Assembly: GCA_003510435.1 (NCBI GenBank)
Contig: DOMK01000010.1
Span: 41,487-105,486 of the forward strand
Length of the DNA stretch: 64,000 nt
From: Candidatus Magasanikiibacteriota bacterium
GTDB taxonomy: Bacteria > Patescibacteriota > Patescibacteriia > Magasanikbacterales > UBA922
Direction: 5' to 3'
Each line of letters begins with the position of its first letter. Within the stretch, counting starts at the first letter, position 1. The position numbers were made by a program, and so were the translations under genes. Shown in pieces: positions 889 through 55,748 of this stretch. The notes under the pieces are model-generated. The model made no database searches. It was not told the origin of the DNA and worked only from the letters and a program-made list of their open reading frames with translations.

Positions 889-941
889 TTAGTTATTTTT
901 TGTTCAGTGAAATCTTTTAATAATCAGTGTAATCAGTGTAT

Positions 942-5821: not shown

Positions 5822-5964
5822 TATCATTTAATTTCGAAGGAACATAGTGGCTGAGAAATCCCTTGTGTTAAATAAATGATTTATAAATTGAGATAAAATA
5901 GAGATATTGAAATATATAAAATATTGGTTATTGACAATTTTTTGATAATATAATACTATATAAA

Positions 5965-6168
5965 TAAGCGATTGATGTGGCTACCAACCATATTCTGCCT
6001 CTCCGGCAGATCCTGTTCAAAGGACTAAGCTTATAAATCGAGTTAAACTTTCGGGTGGAACCGTCCTAATAAAACACAGATGACGCGGATTTCTATGCGA
6101 ATGACGCAGATAACGCGAATTGTGATATTATTGAGACCCCGATACTACTAGTTAGTGTTGGGGTTTTT
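5965..6168 (+). ncRNA. candidate small transcript (promoter-to-terminator unit without long ORF)
   Basis: TTGACA-N17-TACTAT at 5931-5959, internal hairpin TCTGCCTCTCCGGCAGA, three ATGACGC(G/A)GAT-like direct repeats, strong terminator hairpin plus T-run at 6133-6168. Confidence 0.25.
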
Positions 6169-6172
6169 TAAT

Positions 6173-6291
6173 ACACTGATTTCACTGATTTTGTGAGCCT
6201 GCCTGTGGGCAGGGATTTCACAGATTATAATAATCAGTGAAATCAATTTATAAATCAGTGCCTGCCTGCGCAGGCAGGTAATCAATGTTAT
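6173..6291. repeat. MITE-like repeat family A (TIR AACATTGATTACACTGATT), two units with GCCTGCC hairpins; ends at the GNAT start codon
   Basis: CACTGATTTCACTGATT .. AATCAGTGAAATCAAT .. AATCAATGTTAT-ATG; copies at 905-941, 13416-13504, 24317-24384, 33034-33085, 39037-39152. Confidence 0.7.
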
Positions 6292-6837
6292 ATGAAAGGA
6301 CCAATTTTAAAAGGACCAAGAGTAACTTTGCGTCCAATGAAAGTTAGTGATGCGCCAAATTATGTGCGTTGGTTTAAGGATAAAGAAGTAATGAAATATT
6401 TTAATAATAACGTGTGGGGAATTAGTTTGGAAAAAGAAAAAAGCGCTATTAGATCTTTGCAAAGAAAAGTAAATAGTTTAAATTGGGCTGTAGAAGTGGA
6501 TGGATATCACATTGGTGGTACAGGAATAGTTTTGGATAAAAAGGCTGGTACAGGACGTTGGGGCATAGTGATTGGCGAAAAAAAAGAGTGGGGGAAAGGT
6601 TATGCTGTTGAAATTATTTATCTGTGTGCAGATTATTTTTTCAAAAAATTAAAAGGTGAAAGATTTGATTTAATGGTTGAAATGAAAAACGAAAAAGCTT
6701 TAAAAGCTTATAAAAAAGCTGGTTTTAAATTGGAAGGTGTAATGAGAAGTGCTGGTTATAATCCAAGGTTGAAAAAGAGAATAGATTCTGGTGTTATGAG
6801 TATTCTCCGTTCAGAATGGTTAAAATATAAAAAATAA
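6292..6837 (+). CDS. GNAT family N-acetyltransferase
   Basis: 181 aa; acetyl-CoA binding-like segment (GIVIGEKKEWGKGYA); RimL-like. Confidence 0.7.
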   Translation: MKGPILKGPRVTLRPMKVSDAPNYVRWFKDKEVMKYFNNNVWGISLEKEKSAIRSLQRKVNSLNWAVEVDGYHIGGTGIVLDKKAGTGRWGIVIGEKKEWGKGYAVEIIYLCADYFFKKLKGERFDLMVEMKNEKALKAYKKAGFKLEGVMRSAGYNPRLKKRIDSGVMSILRSEWLKYKK

Positions 6838-7387: not shown

Positions 7388-7489
7388 TTTTACATTTATA
7401 ATAAATAACACCCTCGAAAAGGGATCCACCCTTACGGGTATCTTCGACCTCACCGTCTCATCGGCGGGTTCGGGATTAAGTTAAAAAAT

Positions 7490-12089: not shown

Positions 12090-13412
12090 ATGCAATATAA
12101 GTATCACATAACAACTTATGGGTGTCAAATGAATAAGAATGATTCAGAACGGATAGAGGTGGTTTTGAATAAAATGGGTTTGCAGAGTACAGGTGATGTG
12201 GAGTCAGCTGATGTTGTTATCCTTAATACTTGTAGCGTTCGTGATTCAGCTGAAGCGAGAATTTTTGGCCAAGGGGCCAACTTTGCCAAGCTGAAACAAA
12301 AGAAGCCAAATTTAATTGTCGCGGTCACTGGTTGTATGCCTGGCAGAGACAAAACCAAGGAATTAAAAAAGCGTATACCGTGGGTAGATTTGTATTTTGC
12401 GAATGAAGAAATGATTCATTTACCCAAGTGGTTAGCAGAATTAAATCCAGATTTTCGTGTGATGGAAGATTTGGAAACTGATTATCTCAATATCCATCCT
12501 AATTATCATAGTAAATTTCAAGCCTTTGTTAGTATCCAGACAGGATGTAATCATTTTTGTACTTATTGTGTCGTACCCTTTGCCCGTGGTACTGAAGGTA
12601 ATCGATCATTAAAAAGTATTTTGGCTGAAATAGATGATTTGGATAATAAAGGTTATAAAGAAATAACTTTGTTGGGACAAATTGTGAATCATTATATTGC
12701 ACCCGATCCAGAATTTTTTTCTAAAGATAATATTTATAAGAAAAATGATTTTGCTAAGTTGCTGTGGGAAATAAACAAAATGAAAAGTATTGAACGCGTG
12801 CATTGGACTGCTCCGCATCCGATTTATATGGATGAAGAAATGATTGATGCTCTAACTTTACCAAAGCAGGTGAATTTTATTCATTTGCCAGTGCAATCTG
12901 GTAATGACGAAATTCTAAATAAAATGAATCGTCGGCATGATAGACAATTTTATCTGGATATAATTAAAAAGATTAGAGCCAAGCGTCCAGACATGGCAAT
13001 TGGTACAGATATTATTGTTGGTTTTTGTGGGGAAACAGAAGAACAATTTCAAGATACAGTTAGTCTGTTTAAAATTTGTGATTTTGATATTTCTTATCAT
13101 GCTAAATATTCCACTCGGTCAGGCACAGTCGCTGATAAAATGTTTAAAGATGATGTGTCAAAAACAGAAAAGAAAAGACGTTGGCAGATATTACAAGATT
13201 TAATGGAAGAAATTACTTATGCCAAAAATCAAAAATATGTTGGTCAAAAAGTCTCAGTCTTGGTAGAACGTTGCAATGATAGTTGGTGTGAGGGTAATTC
13301 TAATGAAATGAAATTGACTAGATTTAAAGGTAATGAATCAATGATCGGAACGATTCAGACACCAGAAATTTATAAAGCTGGTACCTGGCTTTTGTGGGGA
13401 CGTGTGGTATAA
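12090..13412 (+). CDS. miaB: tRNA methylthiotransferase (MiaB/RimO family radical SAM)
   Basis: N-terminal MTTase cysteines; CNHFCTYC radical-SAM motif; TRAM-like C-terminus. Confidence 0.8.
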   Translation: MQYKYHITTYGCQMNKNDSERIEVVLNKMGLQSTGDVESADVVILNTCSVRDSAEARIFGQGANFAKLKQKKPNLIVAVTGCMPGRDKTKELKKRIPWVDLYFANEEMIHLPKWLAELNPDFRVMEDLETDYLNIHPNYHSKFQAFVSIQTGCNHFCTYCVVPFARGTEGNRSLKSILAEIDDLDNKGYKEITLLGQIVNHYIAPDPEFFSKDNIYKKNDFAKLLWEINKMKSIERVHWTAPHPIYMDEEMIDALTLPKQVNFIHLPVQSGNDEILNKMNRRHDRQFYLDIIKKIRAKRPDMAIGTDIIVGFCGETEEQFQDTVSLFKICDFDISYHAKYSTRSGTVADKMFKDDVSKTEKKRRWQILQDLMEEITYAKNQKYVGQKVSVLVERCNDSWCEGNSNEMKLTRFKGNESMIGTIQTPEIYKAGTWLLWGRVV

Positions 13413-13415
13413 TAG

Positions 13416-13504
13416 ACATTGATTCCATTGATTATTTACTGATTTCGCTGAGTATATCAATTACAATCTGTGTAATCTTTAGTAATCAGTGAAATCAATG
13501 TTAT
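13416..13504. repeat. family A MITE-like element abutting the miaA start
   Basis: GACATTGATTCCATTGATT ... AATCAGTGAAATCAATGTTAT inverted termini; miaB stop TAA lies inside the upstream TGTGGTATAAT -10. Confidence 0.7.
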
Positions 13505-17602: not shown

Positions 17603-17719
17603 AAAATTATATACAAATATACGAATTTACGAATTATACGGATGCTATACAAATGTGTATTGCCGAAGTATGTTCGTATAGCATTTGTATAATTCGTATT
17701 GTTAGTATATTCGTATATT

Positions 17720-18628: not shown

Positions 18629-18740
18629 AATTCCTAATTCACCTAATTTCTAATTCACCTAATAAAATTTCTAATACCCAATTAGTAATTTGATATTGGG
18701 ATTTTTATTAGAAATTAGGTGAATTAGATAATTAGAAATT
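18629..18740. repeat. palindromic repeat family C (CTAATTCACCTAATTTCTAAT) directly 5' of pyrD
   Basis: Inverted copies of TAATTCACCTAATTTCTAAT around an AT-rich centre; second copy at 30878-30986, directly 5' of folA. Confidence 0.65.
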
Positions 18741-21796: not shown

Positions 21797-21869
21797 TTTT
21801 CACATATCACGTATCACATATCACGTATCACAGTTGTTATGTGTTACGTGTTTTATGTTACGTGAAAAA
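21797..21869. repeat. palindromic repeat family D (ATCACGTATCACAT) directly 5' of pyrC
   Basis: TCACGTATCACATATCACGTATCAC // GTGTTACGTGTTTTATGTTACGTGA; related copy at 55606-55690, directly 5' of prfA. Confidence 0.6.
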
Positions 21870-24316: not shown

Positions 24317-24515
24317 ATAACATTGATTACACTGATTTAATACTTGCCTGAGGGCAAGGATTTCACAGATTGTGATTGAATAAATTTTTTTAATATAATT
24401 CTGTTTTAATCCGTTTGTATCTGTTTAATCTGCTGTTTCTAATTCGTTTGGTTGTAATTGTTTACAGCAGATTGAACAGATTATAACAAATTATAATGGA
24501 GCAAAATAAATTAAT

Positions 24516-32453: not shown

Positions 32454-32472
32454 AGCATTGATTTAGACAGAT

Positions 32473-33033
32473 TCAAACAGATTTGTATTTAGCAACTAAT
32501 CCATCTAATTGTTCATATAAGTCCTCTAAATTGCCATTATTATCAATATGTTCAGTGGCTTCTTTGACAATATCGTTAATTGTTAATTCTGTAGATCGTT
32601 GGTGATCAGCGAGAAATTGTTCAAAAGTTTTGTTATTATCATCGCTTTTTTCTCCGCGTTTAGTCAGTCGCTCATAACGGATTTTTGGATCAGCCGAGAT
32701 TTCTACCAAAACAAAACCAGGCAAATTTTTTAAATATTTCACATCATTAGGACGGCGGACATTGGAAATAGAAATAATTTGGTGGGTATCATTTTTTATA
32801 TCCTCGGCTAGAGTTTTTGACATAATGTCATCACCAAATTTCTCTCGAATTGATTCAGAAACTTTGACATAGTTATCCCGATTTAGTTCCAAATAAAATC
32901 TTTTTAAAATATCGGCTAACATAAAACTAAAGCTGTGGTTTTTACCACCGTATTTTTGTTCTAGGTAAGCCCCAGCCGTGTCTTTACCACTAGCCATTTG
33001 GCCAACGAAACCAAAGATGATTTTCATAAACAC
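32473..33033 (-). CDS. P-loop nucleotide/nucleoside kinase (dNMP kinase-like)
   Basis: Walker A GQMASGKDT; sits inside the thymidylate module. Confidence 0.5.
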   Translation of the reverse strand: MFMKIIFGFVGQMASGKDTAGAYLEQKYGGKNHSFSFMLADILKRFYLELNRDNYVKVSESIREKFGDDIMSKTLAEDIKNDTHQIISISNVRRPNDVKYLKNLPGFVLVEISADPKIRYERLTKRGEKSDDNNKTFEQFLADHQRSTELTINDIVKEATEHIDNNGNLEDLYEQLDGLVAKYKSV

Positions 33034-33077
33034 TGATTATACAGATTATTTGATGATTTCACAGATGATTAAAAGGA

Positions 33078-36463: not shown

Positions 36464-36618
36464 AGATATTACTGATATCCAGATAATCCGGATCTACGGA
36501 TTATAAAGGATATAATGTGGTTCTTGCGCCTCAAGTGATTGGGGCTCCCACTTAATTATAAGTAAGTTCGAGAGTATTTATACCTGATTTTGAAAAAAAA
36601 GTCAAGAGGAGGCTGTTT

Positions 36619-38453: not shown

Positions 38454-38458
38454 AAAAA

Positions 38459-38546
38459 AGCTTACAATGCCAACAAGGCTTACTAGGGCTTACCAGGCTT
38501 TGTTAGCATTGTGAGCTTTGCAAGCCTTGTAAGCTTTGCAATTATA
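38459..38546. repeat. repeat family E (GCTTACAAGGCTTAC / AAGCCTTGTAAGC)
   Basis: Copies at 814-853, 1795-1832, 38459-38546, 40044-40113, each just upstream of a gene start. Confidence 0.6.
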
Positions 38547-39036: not shown

Positions 39037-39152
39037 ATTAACATTGATTACACTGATTAAAATTGATTACACTGATTTTAGACAGAAGCGTTTGATTATT
39101 ATTGGTTTCAATCTGTGAAATCTTTAATAATCAGTCTAAATCAATGTTATAT
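39037..39152. repeat. family A MITE-like element between rplK start and nusG end
   Basis: AACATTGATTACACTGATT (x2, tandem) ... AATCAGTCTAAATCAATGTT terminal inverted repeats. Confidence 0.7.
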
Positions 39153-39692: not shown

Positions 39693-39853
39693 AGTTTTTT
39701 ATTCCGAGCGAATGCGAGGAATCCCTTTTTAATGCACAGAAATTTGCATTAAATTAGATTAATTTTAAGCATTTTTATATGCTTGAAAAGGGATCCCTCA
39801 CTCACCTTCGTCCGTCAGCTGACGGACTACGGCGGGTTCGGGATTAAGTTGAA

Positions 39854-40039: not shown

Positions 40040-40183
40040 ATAAAATGCTTATAATGCTTACGAGGCTCACTAGGCTTGGGTAAGCCTTGTCTGCCTTGTC
40101 GGCTTTGTTAGCCTTTATTTTGAAGTATCTAAAAACGGCCTTGAGCCGATTTAGTAATAATATACTAGATTAGCGTGATTTTG

Positions 40184-42118: not shown

Positions 42119-44368
<2,250 letters not shown>

Positions 44369-44541
44369 TTAAATCATAAATTAAAAATCATAAATCCTAA
44401 ATAAATTAAGATTTATTGTTTTCTAGTTTAATTATGGCAATATTATAGCACGATTTATTATATTCTTACAAGGGTAAAAGATGTGGATAAAATTTGGCTA
44501 AAATAAGCGAAATAATAAAGATTAATAAAAGTGGAAAATTC

Positions 44542-44636: not shown

Positions 44637-46187
44637 ATGAACTGGTTGAAGAAAGAGATCAACCGTATGGTGAGCGAAGGCGGCTGGAGCATTGGCGCTC
44701 TGGTAGTCGCTCTGGTGGCGTTCGCTGCCACCGTATTGTGCACCTCGCTCGTGGCAGGTGTGCAGATCGCTCGGGCCGTAGCCTATCTTGGCGGGCCCTT
44801 GCTCGTTCTCGCCTTTATGGCGGTGTACGTTGCCTTTAGGAAACTGCCTTGGAAAAAGGCTGTTCTCCTGCTGGTGTTGTACATCGCCGGACCTGTCGGC
44901 ACTCTGCTCGTGGCAGGTGCTGAGTTGGCAGAGATTGTGTCTCTGCTGACCCTGGGCACGGTCGTCGTCGTGGGGATCTTCCTCATGAGGAAACAACATC
45001 CTGTGATCGCCAAGGTCGTACTGTTTGGAACGGCGTGGGCGGTTGTAATGTGGAACGTCCCGCCGGAATATGAGGGCTGGGCTTGGTGGGTCACTCAGAT
45101 CCTCCTGGTCATCGTGGCTCACGGGTTGGCTCGGGCTTTCCTGTTGCCCTGGCTGGTCAAGTGGATTGAGATGGGTATCACCTGGTTCTTCGGAACCGAC
45201 AAGATGCTCAAGACTCGTCCGTATCTTCGGACGGTCCTCGATCTGATCCTACTCGCGATTGCTATCCTGTTTCTCAGCTGGGTCGTAGGGGGACGATTCC
45301 CCCAGGTCGCGACATGGATTGCTCGGGCTGCTCTAATTACCCTGGCCTATCCCATTAGGCTGGCATATAAGTGGGAGCCGGCGATCACTCGGCTCGTGGC
45401 TGGGTTTGCTGCCATCCTGGTCGCTACGTCGTATCTCGTGGACGACTCGTGGGCCACGAACCCAGTTGAGTCTTTGGTCATGGCCTTTGCGCTTTTCCTG
45501 TTCTGGTTGGAAGTGGTAAAACCGCGCCTCAAGGTGTGGGAGTACTACTCCCGGAACAACTGGGAGAAGCCTCTCTTGGTGGCTGGGATTATCATGGTGG
45601 TCGGCTGTGGAGTCAACTACATGGTAATTCATCTCTGGAACAACATGTGGTTCACCCAGGAGAATGGGTGGAGAATCCCAGAGTTGTTCTGGAAGGCCCC
45701 CGAGGTCGTAGAGATGATAGGGGAAAAGAAAGTGATGATCGTCCCGATGGGTTGGCTTAGAGCCACGCGGGTCGTCCCTATGCTCATCCTTGGCCTGGCT
45801 GTGGGTCTGGCCAACCACGGCAAACTTCCAAAGTACAAGAAAGAAGAGCGCACTGGCCTCGCGTTCTTCATCGGTCTTGGTTTGGGGGTGGCGTTCTTGC
45901 TACTCTTGAAGACCGAGATTCAACTCTCCGTTCTCCTTGGAGCGGGGTTGTTCATAGGTTTCGGCTTAGCTCTCATCGTGGGGCCGTGGCGGTGGCTCGT
46001 CTGCGTGGCCTGTTCTTGGGCCATGACAGTGGGGATGCTTTCGTCCCCGGCCTATGCCGTTCGCGCTTTGCTGTGGGCTCTGCTAACGGCTGGCATGTCG
46101 GCCTGGGCTGCCGCTTTTGTTCGGCTGATCTGGGAGAAATCCTGGGAAATGGCCGGCAAAACCAAGGCTAAGAAAAAAGGCCACTAA
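44637..46187 (+). CDS. polytopic membrane protein (~14 TM) in GC-rich island
   Basis: High GC3 codon usage; GGAGGG SD 4 nt before ATG; Trp/Leu-rich TM helices; no family recognised. Confidence 0.55.
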   Translation: MNWLKKEINRMVSEGGWSIGALVVALVAFAATVLCTSLVAGVQIARAVAYLGGPLLVLAFMAVYVAFRKLPWKKAVLLLVLYIAGPVGTLLVAGAELAEIVSLLTLGTVVVVGIFLMRKQHPVIAKVVLFGTAWAVVMWNVPPEYEGWAWWVTQILLVIVAHGLARAFLLPWLVKWIEMGITWFFGTDKMLKTRPYLRTVLDLILLAIAILFLSWVVGGRFPQVATWIARAALITLAYPIRLAYKWEPAITRLVAGFAAILVATSYLVDDSWATNPVESLVMAFALFLFWLEVVKPRLKVWEYYSRNNWEKPLLVAGIIMVVGCGVNYMVIHLWNNMWFTQENGWRIPELFWKAPEVVEMIGEKKVMIVPMGWLRATRVVPMLILGLAVGLANHGKLPKYKKEERTGLAFFIGLGLGVAFLLLLKTEIQLSVLLGAGLFIGFGLALIVGPWRWLVCVACSWAMTVGMLSSPAYAVRALLWALLTAGMSAWAAAFVRLIWEKSWEMAGKTKAKKKGH

Positions 46188-55605: not shown

Positions 55606-55748
55606 AATTTTTCACGTATCATGAGACACATATCACGTAACAATTATTATACCACGTTTTTTGATATGTGGTATGTGATGTGTGTGGGTTAATTTATTTA
55701 AAATAAAAGACAGACTATAATCAAGTCTGCCTTTGAAATTGTGGACAG

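Follow-up and report, generated by a model that had tools for sequence, protein, structure and literature searches.

Miniature inverted-repeat transposable elements (MITEs), repetitive extragenic palindromes (REPs) with their RAYT proteins, and free-standing homing endonuclease genes are the described systems closest to family A, a short repeat that recurs in a 64-kb stretch of DNA (contig DOMK01000010.1; hereafter the window). The stretch comes from a metagenome-assembled genome (MAG) of Candidatus Magasanikbacteria, in the candidate phyla radiation (CPR)/Patescibacteria, with ~35% GC. Family A has features of all three systems and fails a defining feature of each. It probably represents the inverted end-arms (~40-45 nt) of a ~0.5-kb cassette that carries a GxxExxY gene, and the seven window copies would be MITE-like derivatives lacking the open reading frame (ORF). 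A preliminary description of this DNA had proposed a MITE-like family placed against start codons. A dispersed, non-coding inverted-repeat family is indeed present, and it has a candidate autonomous partner in the GxxExxY gene, which these arms enclose; an arm-bounded copy of the gene belongs to this MAG itself.

MITEs with outward-facing functions, such as the Correia/NEMIS elements of Neisseria, resemble family A in being non-coding elements of 90-160 bp with terminal inverted repeats (in family A, in three of the seven window copies), and in occurring as many intergenic copies near gene starts that can form hairpins and, for family A, would be co-transcribed. In contrast to these elements, family A has neither a TA nor any other target-site duplication, its arms are tandem 9-10-nt units rather than a unique terminal repeat, its copies share no conserved internal sequence and are often one-armed, and its junctions are fixed at stop and start codons. 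Its partner is a PD-(D/E)xK nuclease, not a DDE transposase, and no promoter is evident. As expected of a MITE, family A is short, non-coding and multicopy, has a coding partner with the same ends (albeit not a recognised transposase) and is polymorphic for insertion between relatives; target-site duplication is the MITE feature that is missing. REP/REPIN repeats and RAYTs (Y1 HUH) share with family A the intergenic, hairpin-forming inverted doublets, the one or few coding partners per genome flanked by the same repeats, an apparent co-variation of repeat and protein lineage, and long vertical persistence. However, the partner of family A is a nuclease of PF13366/TIGR04256 and not a RAYT. REPs are GC-rich palindromes that usually lie 3' of genes, whereas family A consists of AT-rich arrays of units that run up to start codons.

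Free-standing homing endonuclease genes of the PD-(D/E)xK type (I-Ssp6803I) are likewise small nuclease ORFs between host genes, co-directional and promoterless, without target-site duplication and patchy among relatives, and loss of the ORF leaves a scar. Homing genes are not generally known to have 40-nt inverted unit arrays as borders or to leave multi-copy ORF-less derivatives; the GxxExxY cassette has both, and its nuclease activity is a prediction and its target putative. Integron cassettes with attC hairpins offer a further parallel in their promoterless ORF with an imperfect inverted repeat, their co-directional insertion and the ORF stop within the repeat. The termini of family A read ..AAC / GTT.., as do attC core sites, and match the core sites RYYYAAC/GTTRRRY with one mismatch each. 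An integron attC was nevertheless rejected: the arms stand on either side of the ORF, where an attC would be a single site 3' of it, and neither an integrase nor a cassette array is present. Lastly, direct repeats of the heptamer TAACTGA occur in Beggiatoaceae, Cyanobacteria and Bacteroidetes (MacGregor, 2015, PMC4679880), and cyanobacterial short tandemly repeated repetitive (STRR) repeats are comparable. Like family A, the TAACTGA repeats are short units in two to six forward copies within a few nucleotides of starts, precede genes without Shine-Dalgarno (SD) sequences, including ribosomal-protein genes, and have a phyletic spread suggesting horizontal transfer. They differ in period (7 nt, against 9-10 nt in family A) and in unit sequence, and neither inverted arms nor an associated nuclease gene are reported for them (PMC4679880). 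A link between GxxExxY genes and TAACTGA arrays is only a lead.

The cassette itself was read in relatives of the window genome (L numbers denote fetched relative loci or contigs, and P numbers proteins or the contigs that encode them). In L208, the element between miaB and miaA carries a 130-aa ORF between a left and a right arm. Arms flank the GxxExxY gene in all eight contexts read, which were picked from homologues of one protein and represent six gene contexts, five of them in Magasanikbacteria (Table 1). The seven homologues besides that of L208 are 53-84% identical to protein P0121 by alignment and 56-85% in the homologue-search table. In every context read the cassette ORF is co-directional with its neighbours. 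The layout runs from the upstream stop through (G)ACATTGATTWCACTGATT...TTTCACAGAYYT, the ATG-ORF-stop and AATCAGTGAAATC...AATCAGTGGAATCAATGTTAT to the ATG of the next gene. Left arms are built of 9-10-nt units of the CACTGATT type and right arms of the AATCAGTG type. The left end stands at the upstream stop codon or supplies it, and the right end, ...AATCAGTGWAATCAATGTTAT, lies 2-5 nt before the ATG. Copies in the window match the outer ~40 nt of the left arm and the outer ~45 nt of the right arm, in the same unit order. A sister genome (L209) and L211 align at 89.8% identity along 499 bp that begin at the upstream stop and reach the downstream ATG; outside this unit their flanks are unrelated. 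The L211 copy comes from the same MAG as the window, since the accession of its protein (HBU06745.1) falls in the same series as those of window proteins (HBU06974, HBU06980, HBU07009).

The first unit of the right arm encodes the last codons and the stop of the cassette ORF, so that arm and gene belong to one unit; a tail of SV followed by the stop (TCTGTnTAA) is found in 6 of 20 aligned homologues, including the one from Bacteroidia. Arms and protein also appear to vary together. Proteins 73-85% identical to P0121 have AATCAGTG arms, P0171 and P0153 (64-65% identical) have variant arms of the AATCAGT and AATCTGT types, and a diverged 55% paralogue has TTCCGT arms (ACGGAA/TTCCGT), with about four arm types sampled in all. 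At the slot between an aminoacyl-tRNA synthetase (aaRS) gene and CTP_transf, both arms have changed together, one genome having CACAGATT/AATCTGTG with P0153 and another CACGGAAG/TTCCGTG with P0205. Arm-gene association, discrete ends, the same unit in differing gene contexts, arm co-variation and conservation of the terminal 21 nt appear firm at the level of sequence. Arm units reach into host genes as well: they encode the C-termini and stops of an upstream HAD hydrolase (L216, 1480-1500), the aaRS (L219 and L224, 1450-1500) and a kinase (window, 32473-32495), and the element appears to have reshaped host C-termini. Neither the window nor ~0.8 Mb of rplK loci gave a match to 120 GxxExxY proteins by tblastn, and the window ORFs include no GxxExxY gene, transposase or Y1 transposase/RAYT. 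An Acidobacteriota GxxExxY homologue has no arms, and a search of IMG/VR for GxxExxY returned one unrelated giant-virus match.

GxxExxY proteins of the cassettes have 126-135 aa (GxxExxY/PDDEXK_3). The GxxExxY motif and residues E49, D67, E77 and K79 are invariant in the homologue alignment. An AlphaFold2 (AF2) model reaches a mean predicted local distance difference test (pLDDT) score of 92, and its best structural matches in the PDB are Cas4 SSO0001, MGME1 and lambda exonuclease; searching the PDB by sequence found no relative. By these features, the protein looks like an active PD-(D/E)xK, Cas4/RecB-like nuclease whose active site is intact. The search returned more than 1,000 close homologues. 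In a survey of PD-(D/E)xK proteins, PF13366 was entered as 'unknown' (PMC3424549). A search of the literature found GxxExxY rarely mentioned and no paper joining MITEs and CPR.

The family A unit is 9-10 nt long, AATC[A/T][A/G]TG plus one base (AATCWRTGW), with the complement CACTGATT. In the window it clusters at all six loci of the preliminary description, and the clustering far exceeds expectation: a 19-mer (<=3 mismatches) matches nine times against 0.07 expected, AATCAATGTTAT (<=1 mismatch) seven times against 1.63, and AATCAGTG 12 times against 2.23, with 11 of the 12 inside these loci. All matches of an arm profile (nhmmer) with E<0.05 fall within five of the six. Seven copies are present in all, including a diverged one before dut (Table 1); they measure 37-120 nt each and contain no ORF. 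Inverted arm pairs are found in three of them, and the other four are forward half-arrays of the right arm only. Terminal inverted repeats, which had been ascribed to every copy, are accordingly present at 6172-6291, 13413-13504 and 39037-39152, as in all ORF-bearing Magasanikbacteria copies, and absent from the one-armed copies at 905-941, 24317-24384 and 33028-33077. Likewise, internal GC hairpins occur in the GNAT copy and, as a variant, in the pyrB copy, and in no other. The full copies would be internal-deletion derivatives of the cassette, and the one-armed copies right arms that have decayed further. A family A arm also lies at the dut gene of another Magasanikbacteria MAG (L100). Flanking-gene identities in the window were checked with Pfam (GNAT, MiaA, aspartate carbamoyltransferase, P-loop kinase, L11 and NusG).

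Table 1. Family A copies in the window and contexts of the GxxExxY cassette in other loci (window coordinates, strand of the copy)
Feature	Location	Strand	Structure and neighbours
One-armed copy	905-941	+	TTCAGTGAAATC, spacer, then AATCAGTGTAATCAGTGTAT; between two convergent intrinsic terminators; adjoins no gene
Full copy before GNAT	6172-6291	+	arms 6172-6230 (left, CACTGATT units) and 6231-6291 (right, with AATCAATGTTAT running up to GNAT ATG 6292); two inserted GC hairpins, 6198-6213 and 6261-6278; left end adjoins terminator T-run; fold z = -5.3
Full copy, entire miaB-miaA spacer	13413-13504	+	TAG/ACATTGATT begins 0-3 nt past miaB stop 13410-13412; AATCAATGTTAT runs to miaA ATG 13505; fold z = -4.05
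One-armed forward copy before pyrB ATG 24316	24317-24384	-	AATCTGTGAAATC, GC hairpin 24343-24358 (variant CTTGCC..GGCAAG), then AATCAGTGTAATCAATGTTAT
Diverged one-armed copy before dut ATG 32453	32454-32495	-	AATCTGTTTGAATCTGTCTAAATCAATGCT; AATCAATGCT abuts ATG; kinase TGA stop 32473-32475 falls inside the array
One-armed forward copy, entire deaminase-kinase spacer	33028-33077	-	ends AATCAGTGTTT before kinase ATG 33027 (184-aa gene call)
Full copy, entire nusG-rplK spacer	39037-39152	-	right arm 39037-39080, ending AATCAATGTTAAT before rplK ATG 39036; left arm 39110-39152, overlapping nusG TAA 39147-39149, with AATCAATGTTAT (39139-39150) at the stop, not a start; centre retains rplK-leader motif GCTTCTG 39083-39089, conserved across the lineage; fold z = -4.5
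GxxExxY context	L208		miaB / miaA
GxxExxY context	L209		mannose-P isomerase / GT2
GxxExxY context	L211, L213 (two genomes)		GT2 / NTP_transferase
GxxExxY context	L216		HAD / cofD
GxxExxY context	L219, L224 (two genomes)		aaRS / CTP_transf
GxxExxY context	L223, Bacteroidia MAG		after nuoD; right arm only

The proposed placement next to start codons is borne out within the window, where family A is the sequence directly 5' of starts: six of the seven arrays stop 2-5 nt short of a start codon in sense orientation, and for seven array ends scattered randomly over the 8.5 kb between genes (13% of the sequence), the probability of at least six such positions is ~3e-11. Five copies had been said to end in the same sequence at the ATG. 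This is exact at GNAT, miaA and pyrB, where AATCAATGTTAT runs directly into the start codon, and does not extend to rplK and the kinase, which have AATCAATGTTAAT and AATCAGTGTTT in that place.

Full copies are predicted to form hairpins of 90-120 nt with fold z-scores of -4 to -5, the stem beginning 0-3 nt past the upstream stop and ending 2-5 nt before the ATG. These properties could mean that the arms are selected as an intercistronic mRNA stem, for termination-reinitiation coupling or as an RNase III or stability site. Elements of other families at orthologous slots keep the hairpin layout with a different sequence, as such a stem would allow. However, the four one-armed copies have no significant structure (z-scores -0.4 to -2.2), and the arms of ORF-bearing copies lie ~400 nt apart. 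Moreover, sense and antisense strands of 17 full elements fold about equally, the antisense being as good or better in 11 of the 17, without any G-U bias. Because both strands fold about equally, the arm pairing appears to be a DNA-level inverted repeat rather than an RNA-selected stem; the comparison weakens the RNA reading, which is improbable. Folding of the leaders, which the preliminary description had put forward as a check, thus separates structured full copies from unstructured half copies and gives the pairing no sense-strand preference. Rfam has no family for the element: the window yields one tRNA at the gathering score, and sub-threshold matches at 6169-6277 are at chance level.

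The preliminary description also raised a promoter function, and this part fell away. Under such a reading, the bipartite box1/box2 motif of the arm would be a promoter of non-canonical type, such as one read by an alternative sigma factor, serving leaderless or near-leaderless mRNAs. The boxes are ~20 nt apart and end 2-8 nt upstream of the ATG, and the GNAT gene follows directly after a terminator without another obvious promoter. Scanning for -35/-10 consensus sequences found no sigma-70-like match common to the arms, however, and the best -10-like string would include the ATG itself. Canonical TTGACA-17-TATAAT promoters are present elsewhere in the genome. The motif varies in its spacing to the ATG from -3 to 15 nt and also stands inverted next to stop codons. 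Copies moreover lie within ribosomal-protein operons, before rplB and rplE in other MAGs (L073, L088), and between nusG and rplK in the window. Sister genomes have the canonical promoter and proximal leader of gyrB and rplA in conserved form, and only the ATG-proximal array downstream, of other unit families, is swapped. These other-family arrays lie in transcribed leaders, and family A may do so as well. With the consensus scans and the sister-genome leaders both pointing away from it, the promoter reading was rejected and ranks, together with pure slippage, as the least credible of the alternatives. A DnaA box, an IHF site (WATCAANNNNTTR) and anti-SD complementarity were compared with the arms by eye, and each is a poor match.

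Slots holding family A were compared among 80 rplK loci from metagenomes and contigs encoding identical or related proteins. Other contigs of the same population (L117, L119, L120, L124) are 100% identical to the window, so that no insertion polymorphism can be read from them. The slot between miaB and miaA exists in four states: ORF-less family A (window, L207), arms with the ORF (L208), an element of another family (L205) and, in a more distant relative (P0003 contig), a 7-nt spacer judged from gene coordinates. MiaA identity is 81% for L207 and 75% for L208, and the end at which AATCAATGTTAT meets the ATG is unchanged in both. The thrS slot is filled in L208 and empty of the element in the window. 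Diverged family A arms occupy the nusG-rplK spacer of L125, L131, L139 and L141, and at some slots family A appears to be old and vertically inherited. The terminal 21 nt are identical at 20 of 21 positions where flanking genes are 66-74% identical. In the closest sister lineage (L118, L205), the coding DNA is 87-94% identical and the NusG and L11 proteins are identical; AAGCC-type arms stand at nusG-rplK and miaB-miaA, and a GC-hairpin pair stands at GNAT. The centre of the nusG-rplK spacer (ACCAAT..GCTTCTG..TAAAAT) is kept in this lineage. No target-site duplication was found at any junction examined, nor in a comparison of filled and empty sites of a sister family. As a separate observation, most of the 80 Patescibacteria loci (L125-L204) share a conserved small hairpin with a bulged GCTTCTC/GCTTCTG between nusG and rplK (window 39083-39089, minus strand), a candidate L11-operon leader.

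Conservation of the end sequence next to starts is what a host translation signal would predict. In that case AAUCAGUGWAAUCAAUG-N2-5-AUG would be a selected initiation context, a standby site for the ribosome or S1 or a factor site, and the nuclease gene a mere passenger. Shine-Dalgarno sites appear to be unused by this Magasanikbacteria genome: an SD-like tetramer (GGAG/GAGG/AGGA) at -20 to -5 precedes 1 of 54 window genes, and the 20 nt upstream of gene starts are ~79% A+T. Besides the six sense-strand window copies, all six half copies that adjoin an ATG are in forward orientation, 2-5 nt from it; the terminal 21 nt hardly vary between genomes whose orthologous proteins share 66-81% identity; at some loci (cofD in L216) the start codon may be the ATG within the motif; and start-flush TAACTGA arrays have been proposed as translational signals in Beggiatoaceae (PMC4679880). 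Yet only ~12% of genes carry family A, the others having unrelated unit families or none, and orthologous slots of a sister genome (87-94% nucleotide identity in shared genes) hold other families or nothing while their genes are visibly unchanged. The GxxExxY ORF itself starts behind a reverse-orientation arm, the genes downstream of family A form no coherent regulon, and the 905-941 copy precedes no gene. A host signal is therefore judged unlikely, although it stands second to the cassette reading and ahead of the RNA stem.

Family A appears to be one member of a wider class of unit arrays. Short-unit arrays of period 6-11 number 45 in the window, and 28 of them lie in its intergenic 13%, about ten times more densely than elsewhere, with 11 arrays within 12 nt of a start. 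Their families include AATCAGTG, GTAAGC/AAGCC, ATTCGTA, GATACGT, ATTAGGTGA and others. Slippage and template switching in a repair-poor genome could build such arrays and quasi-palindromes in unconstrained spacers, with gene conversion homogenising them, and family A would then be a neutral by-product without mobility of its own. The density of arrays, their many families and the turnover of those nearest the ATG, which is far faster than point substitution, fit this account. It is very unlikely for family A, however, whose 17-21-mer recurs at numerous unrelated slots of five or more other Magasanikbacteria MAGs, the metagenome relatives L207 and L208 and a Bacteroidia MAG, and which has a defined end sequence, a specific link to one protein family and a discrete 495-bp unit common to unrelated contexts. 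A scan of a contig collection (596 Gb) with the 17-mer gave mostly chance matches, the query being too short, yet Magasanikbacteria were enriched.

Several other arrays and hairpins were noted at starts. An 85-nt GTAAGC-family palindrome is flush with the secE ATG (window 40041-40121, minus strand), and an 89%-identical palindrome is flush with the nusG ATG in L118 (9227-9321), where the site upstream of secE is empty. Since GTAAGC copies stand at different start-codon slots, this second array family moves between slots. Further start-flush arrays lie at 38454-38545, 21797-21864, 55606-55690, 18629-18691, 17603-17719, 44366-44405 and 24385-24480, with units GTAAGC/AAGCC, GATACGT/GATATGT, ATTAGGTGA, ATTCGTA, ATTTATGATT and an AATCTGYT palindrome; several are inverted pairs. 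GC-rich hairpins of a 'family B', GGGATYCC..GCTCGGRAT, precede starts at 7410-7489, at 39693-39853 and upstream of 30259, 31888 and 39692. They also occur at the GNAT slot of the sister lineage and in distant Patescibacteria loci (L148, L159, L187). In the rplA leader, a structure GGGAGCCCC..GGCGCAAG (~36520-36590, minus strand) is conserved in L118.

If family A derives from a GxxExxY cassette, the nuclease would recognise the arms, or the hairpin or cruciform that they form, and would drive insertion or copying by break repair. Break repair is favoured because target-site duplication is absent. Stop-start junctions would serve as tolerated landing sites, survivable because translation does not need an SD sequence, a stop (TAA or TAG in ATAAC/ATAGAC) is retained or provided at the left end and the right end leaves the ATG intact. 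The inverted arms of full copies may then fold back and keep stop and start close, and arms would be co-transcribed as a 5' leader or intercistronic spacer rather than act as promoters.

Several observations weigh against this account. Target-site duplication, as noted, is missing at every junction examined, and the 130-aa PD-(D/E)xK protein is not a known transposase; cutting or binding of the arms is only putative. The data fit arms that travel with the ORF and an ORF that homes into pre-existing family A hairpins alike, and the ORF contexts number just eight, all with homologues of a single protein. The nusG-rplK copy cannot be a simple deletion derivative, because it encloses the conserved host leader motif GCTTCTG. 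Family A has also persisted vertically for long at miaB-miaA (window, L207, L208), at nusG-rplK (window, L125, L131, L139, L141) and at GT2 / NTP_transferase (L211, L213). Near-identity of the terminal 21 nt beside flanks of 66-74% identity is easier to explain by a function for the host or by frequent gene conversion than by a passive relic, and the uniform forward orientation of the ATG-adjoining half copies counts on the same side. Finally, simple transposition does not explain the replacement of family A by AAGCC-type arms at two sister-lineage slots whose flanking genes are ~94% identical. Together, these points leave room for a host role in translation initiation or for nuclease-driven gene conversion.

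Outside the family A loci, or beside them, other features of the window were recorded. A ~950-bp segment at 829-1814 is bounded by a 19-bp direct repeat, ATGCTTGCAAGGCTTACAA (829-847, 1796-1814), and contains a stretch of ~60% GC (960-1700) in this 35% GC genome, for which Rfam gave no match, as well as a minus-strand 127-aa ORF (1314-1697) without a Pfam match; a TGgTATAAT promoter lies directly before an ATG at 1795. The segment could be a foreign insert or an assembly chimera. At 5931-6170, an intrinsic terminator lies ~200 nt downstream of a sigma-70-like promoter (TTGACA-17-TACTAT). This unit, which the sister lineage (L205) retains with compensatory changes in the stem, has no Rfam match and is a candidate new small RNA; its window copy has an extra ~60-nt insert of ATGACGCGGATT/ATGCGAAT units (~6080-6140). 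A 516-aa ORF at 44637-46187 has no Pfam match and is locally ~42% GC.

The GxxExxY cassette could plausibly be a new kind of element. A broader proposal, advanced here tentatively, is that GxxExxY nucleases and their unit-array arms form an 'operon-junction cassette', a class of mobile element undescribed in the literature searched. Such a cassette would land exactly between a stop and the next start in SD-independent phyla (Patescibacteria, Bacteroidota), its arms co-evolving with the nuclease, and ORF-less progeny of several arm families would now form the usual leader next to the ATG in a considerable share of genes. If true, this would explain the many start-flush arrays of short units in these genomes, and possibly TAACTGA-type arrays elsewhere. 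For the large GxxExxY/PDDEXK_3 protein family, the cassette would provide a first concrete genomic role. For the host, it would mean that selfish or semi-domesticated elements can sit exactly at the gene junctions of a streamlined CPR genome and be tolerated, likely because translation there is SD-independent. It also suggests, in testable form, where the short-unit arrays occupying the leaders of these genomes come from. In annotation, these arrays would account for odd start-codon contexts and for the repeat-encoded C-terminal tails of upstream genes.

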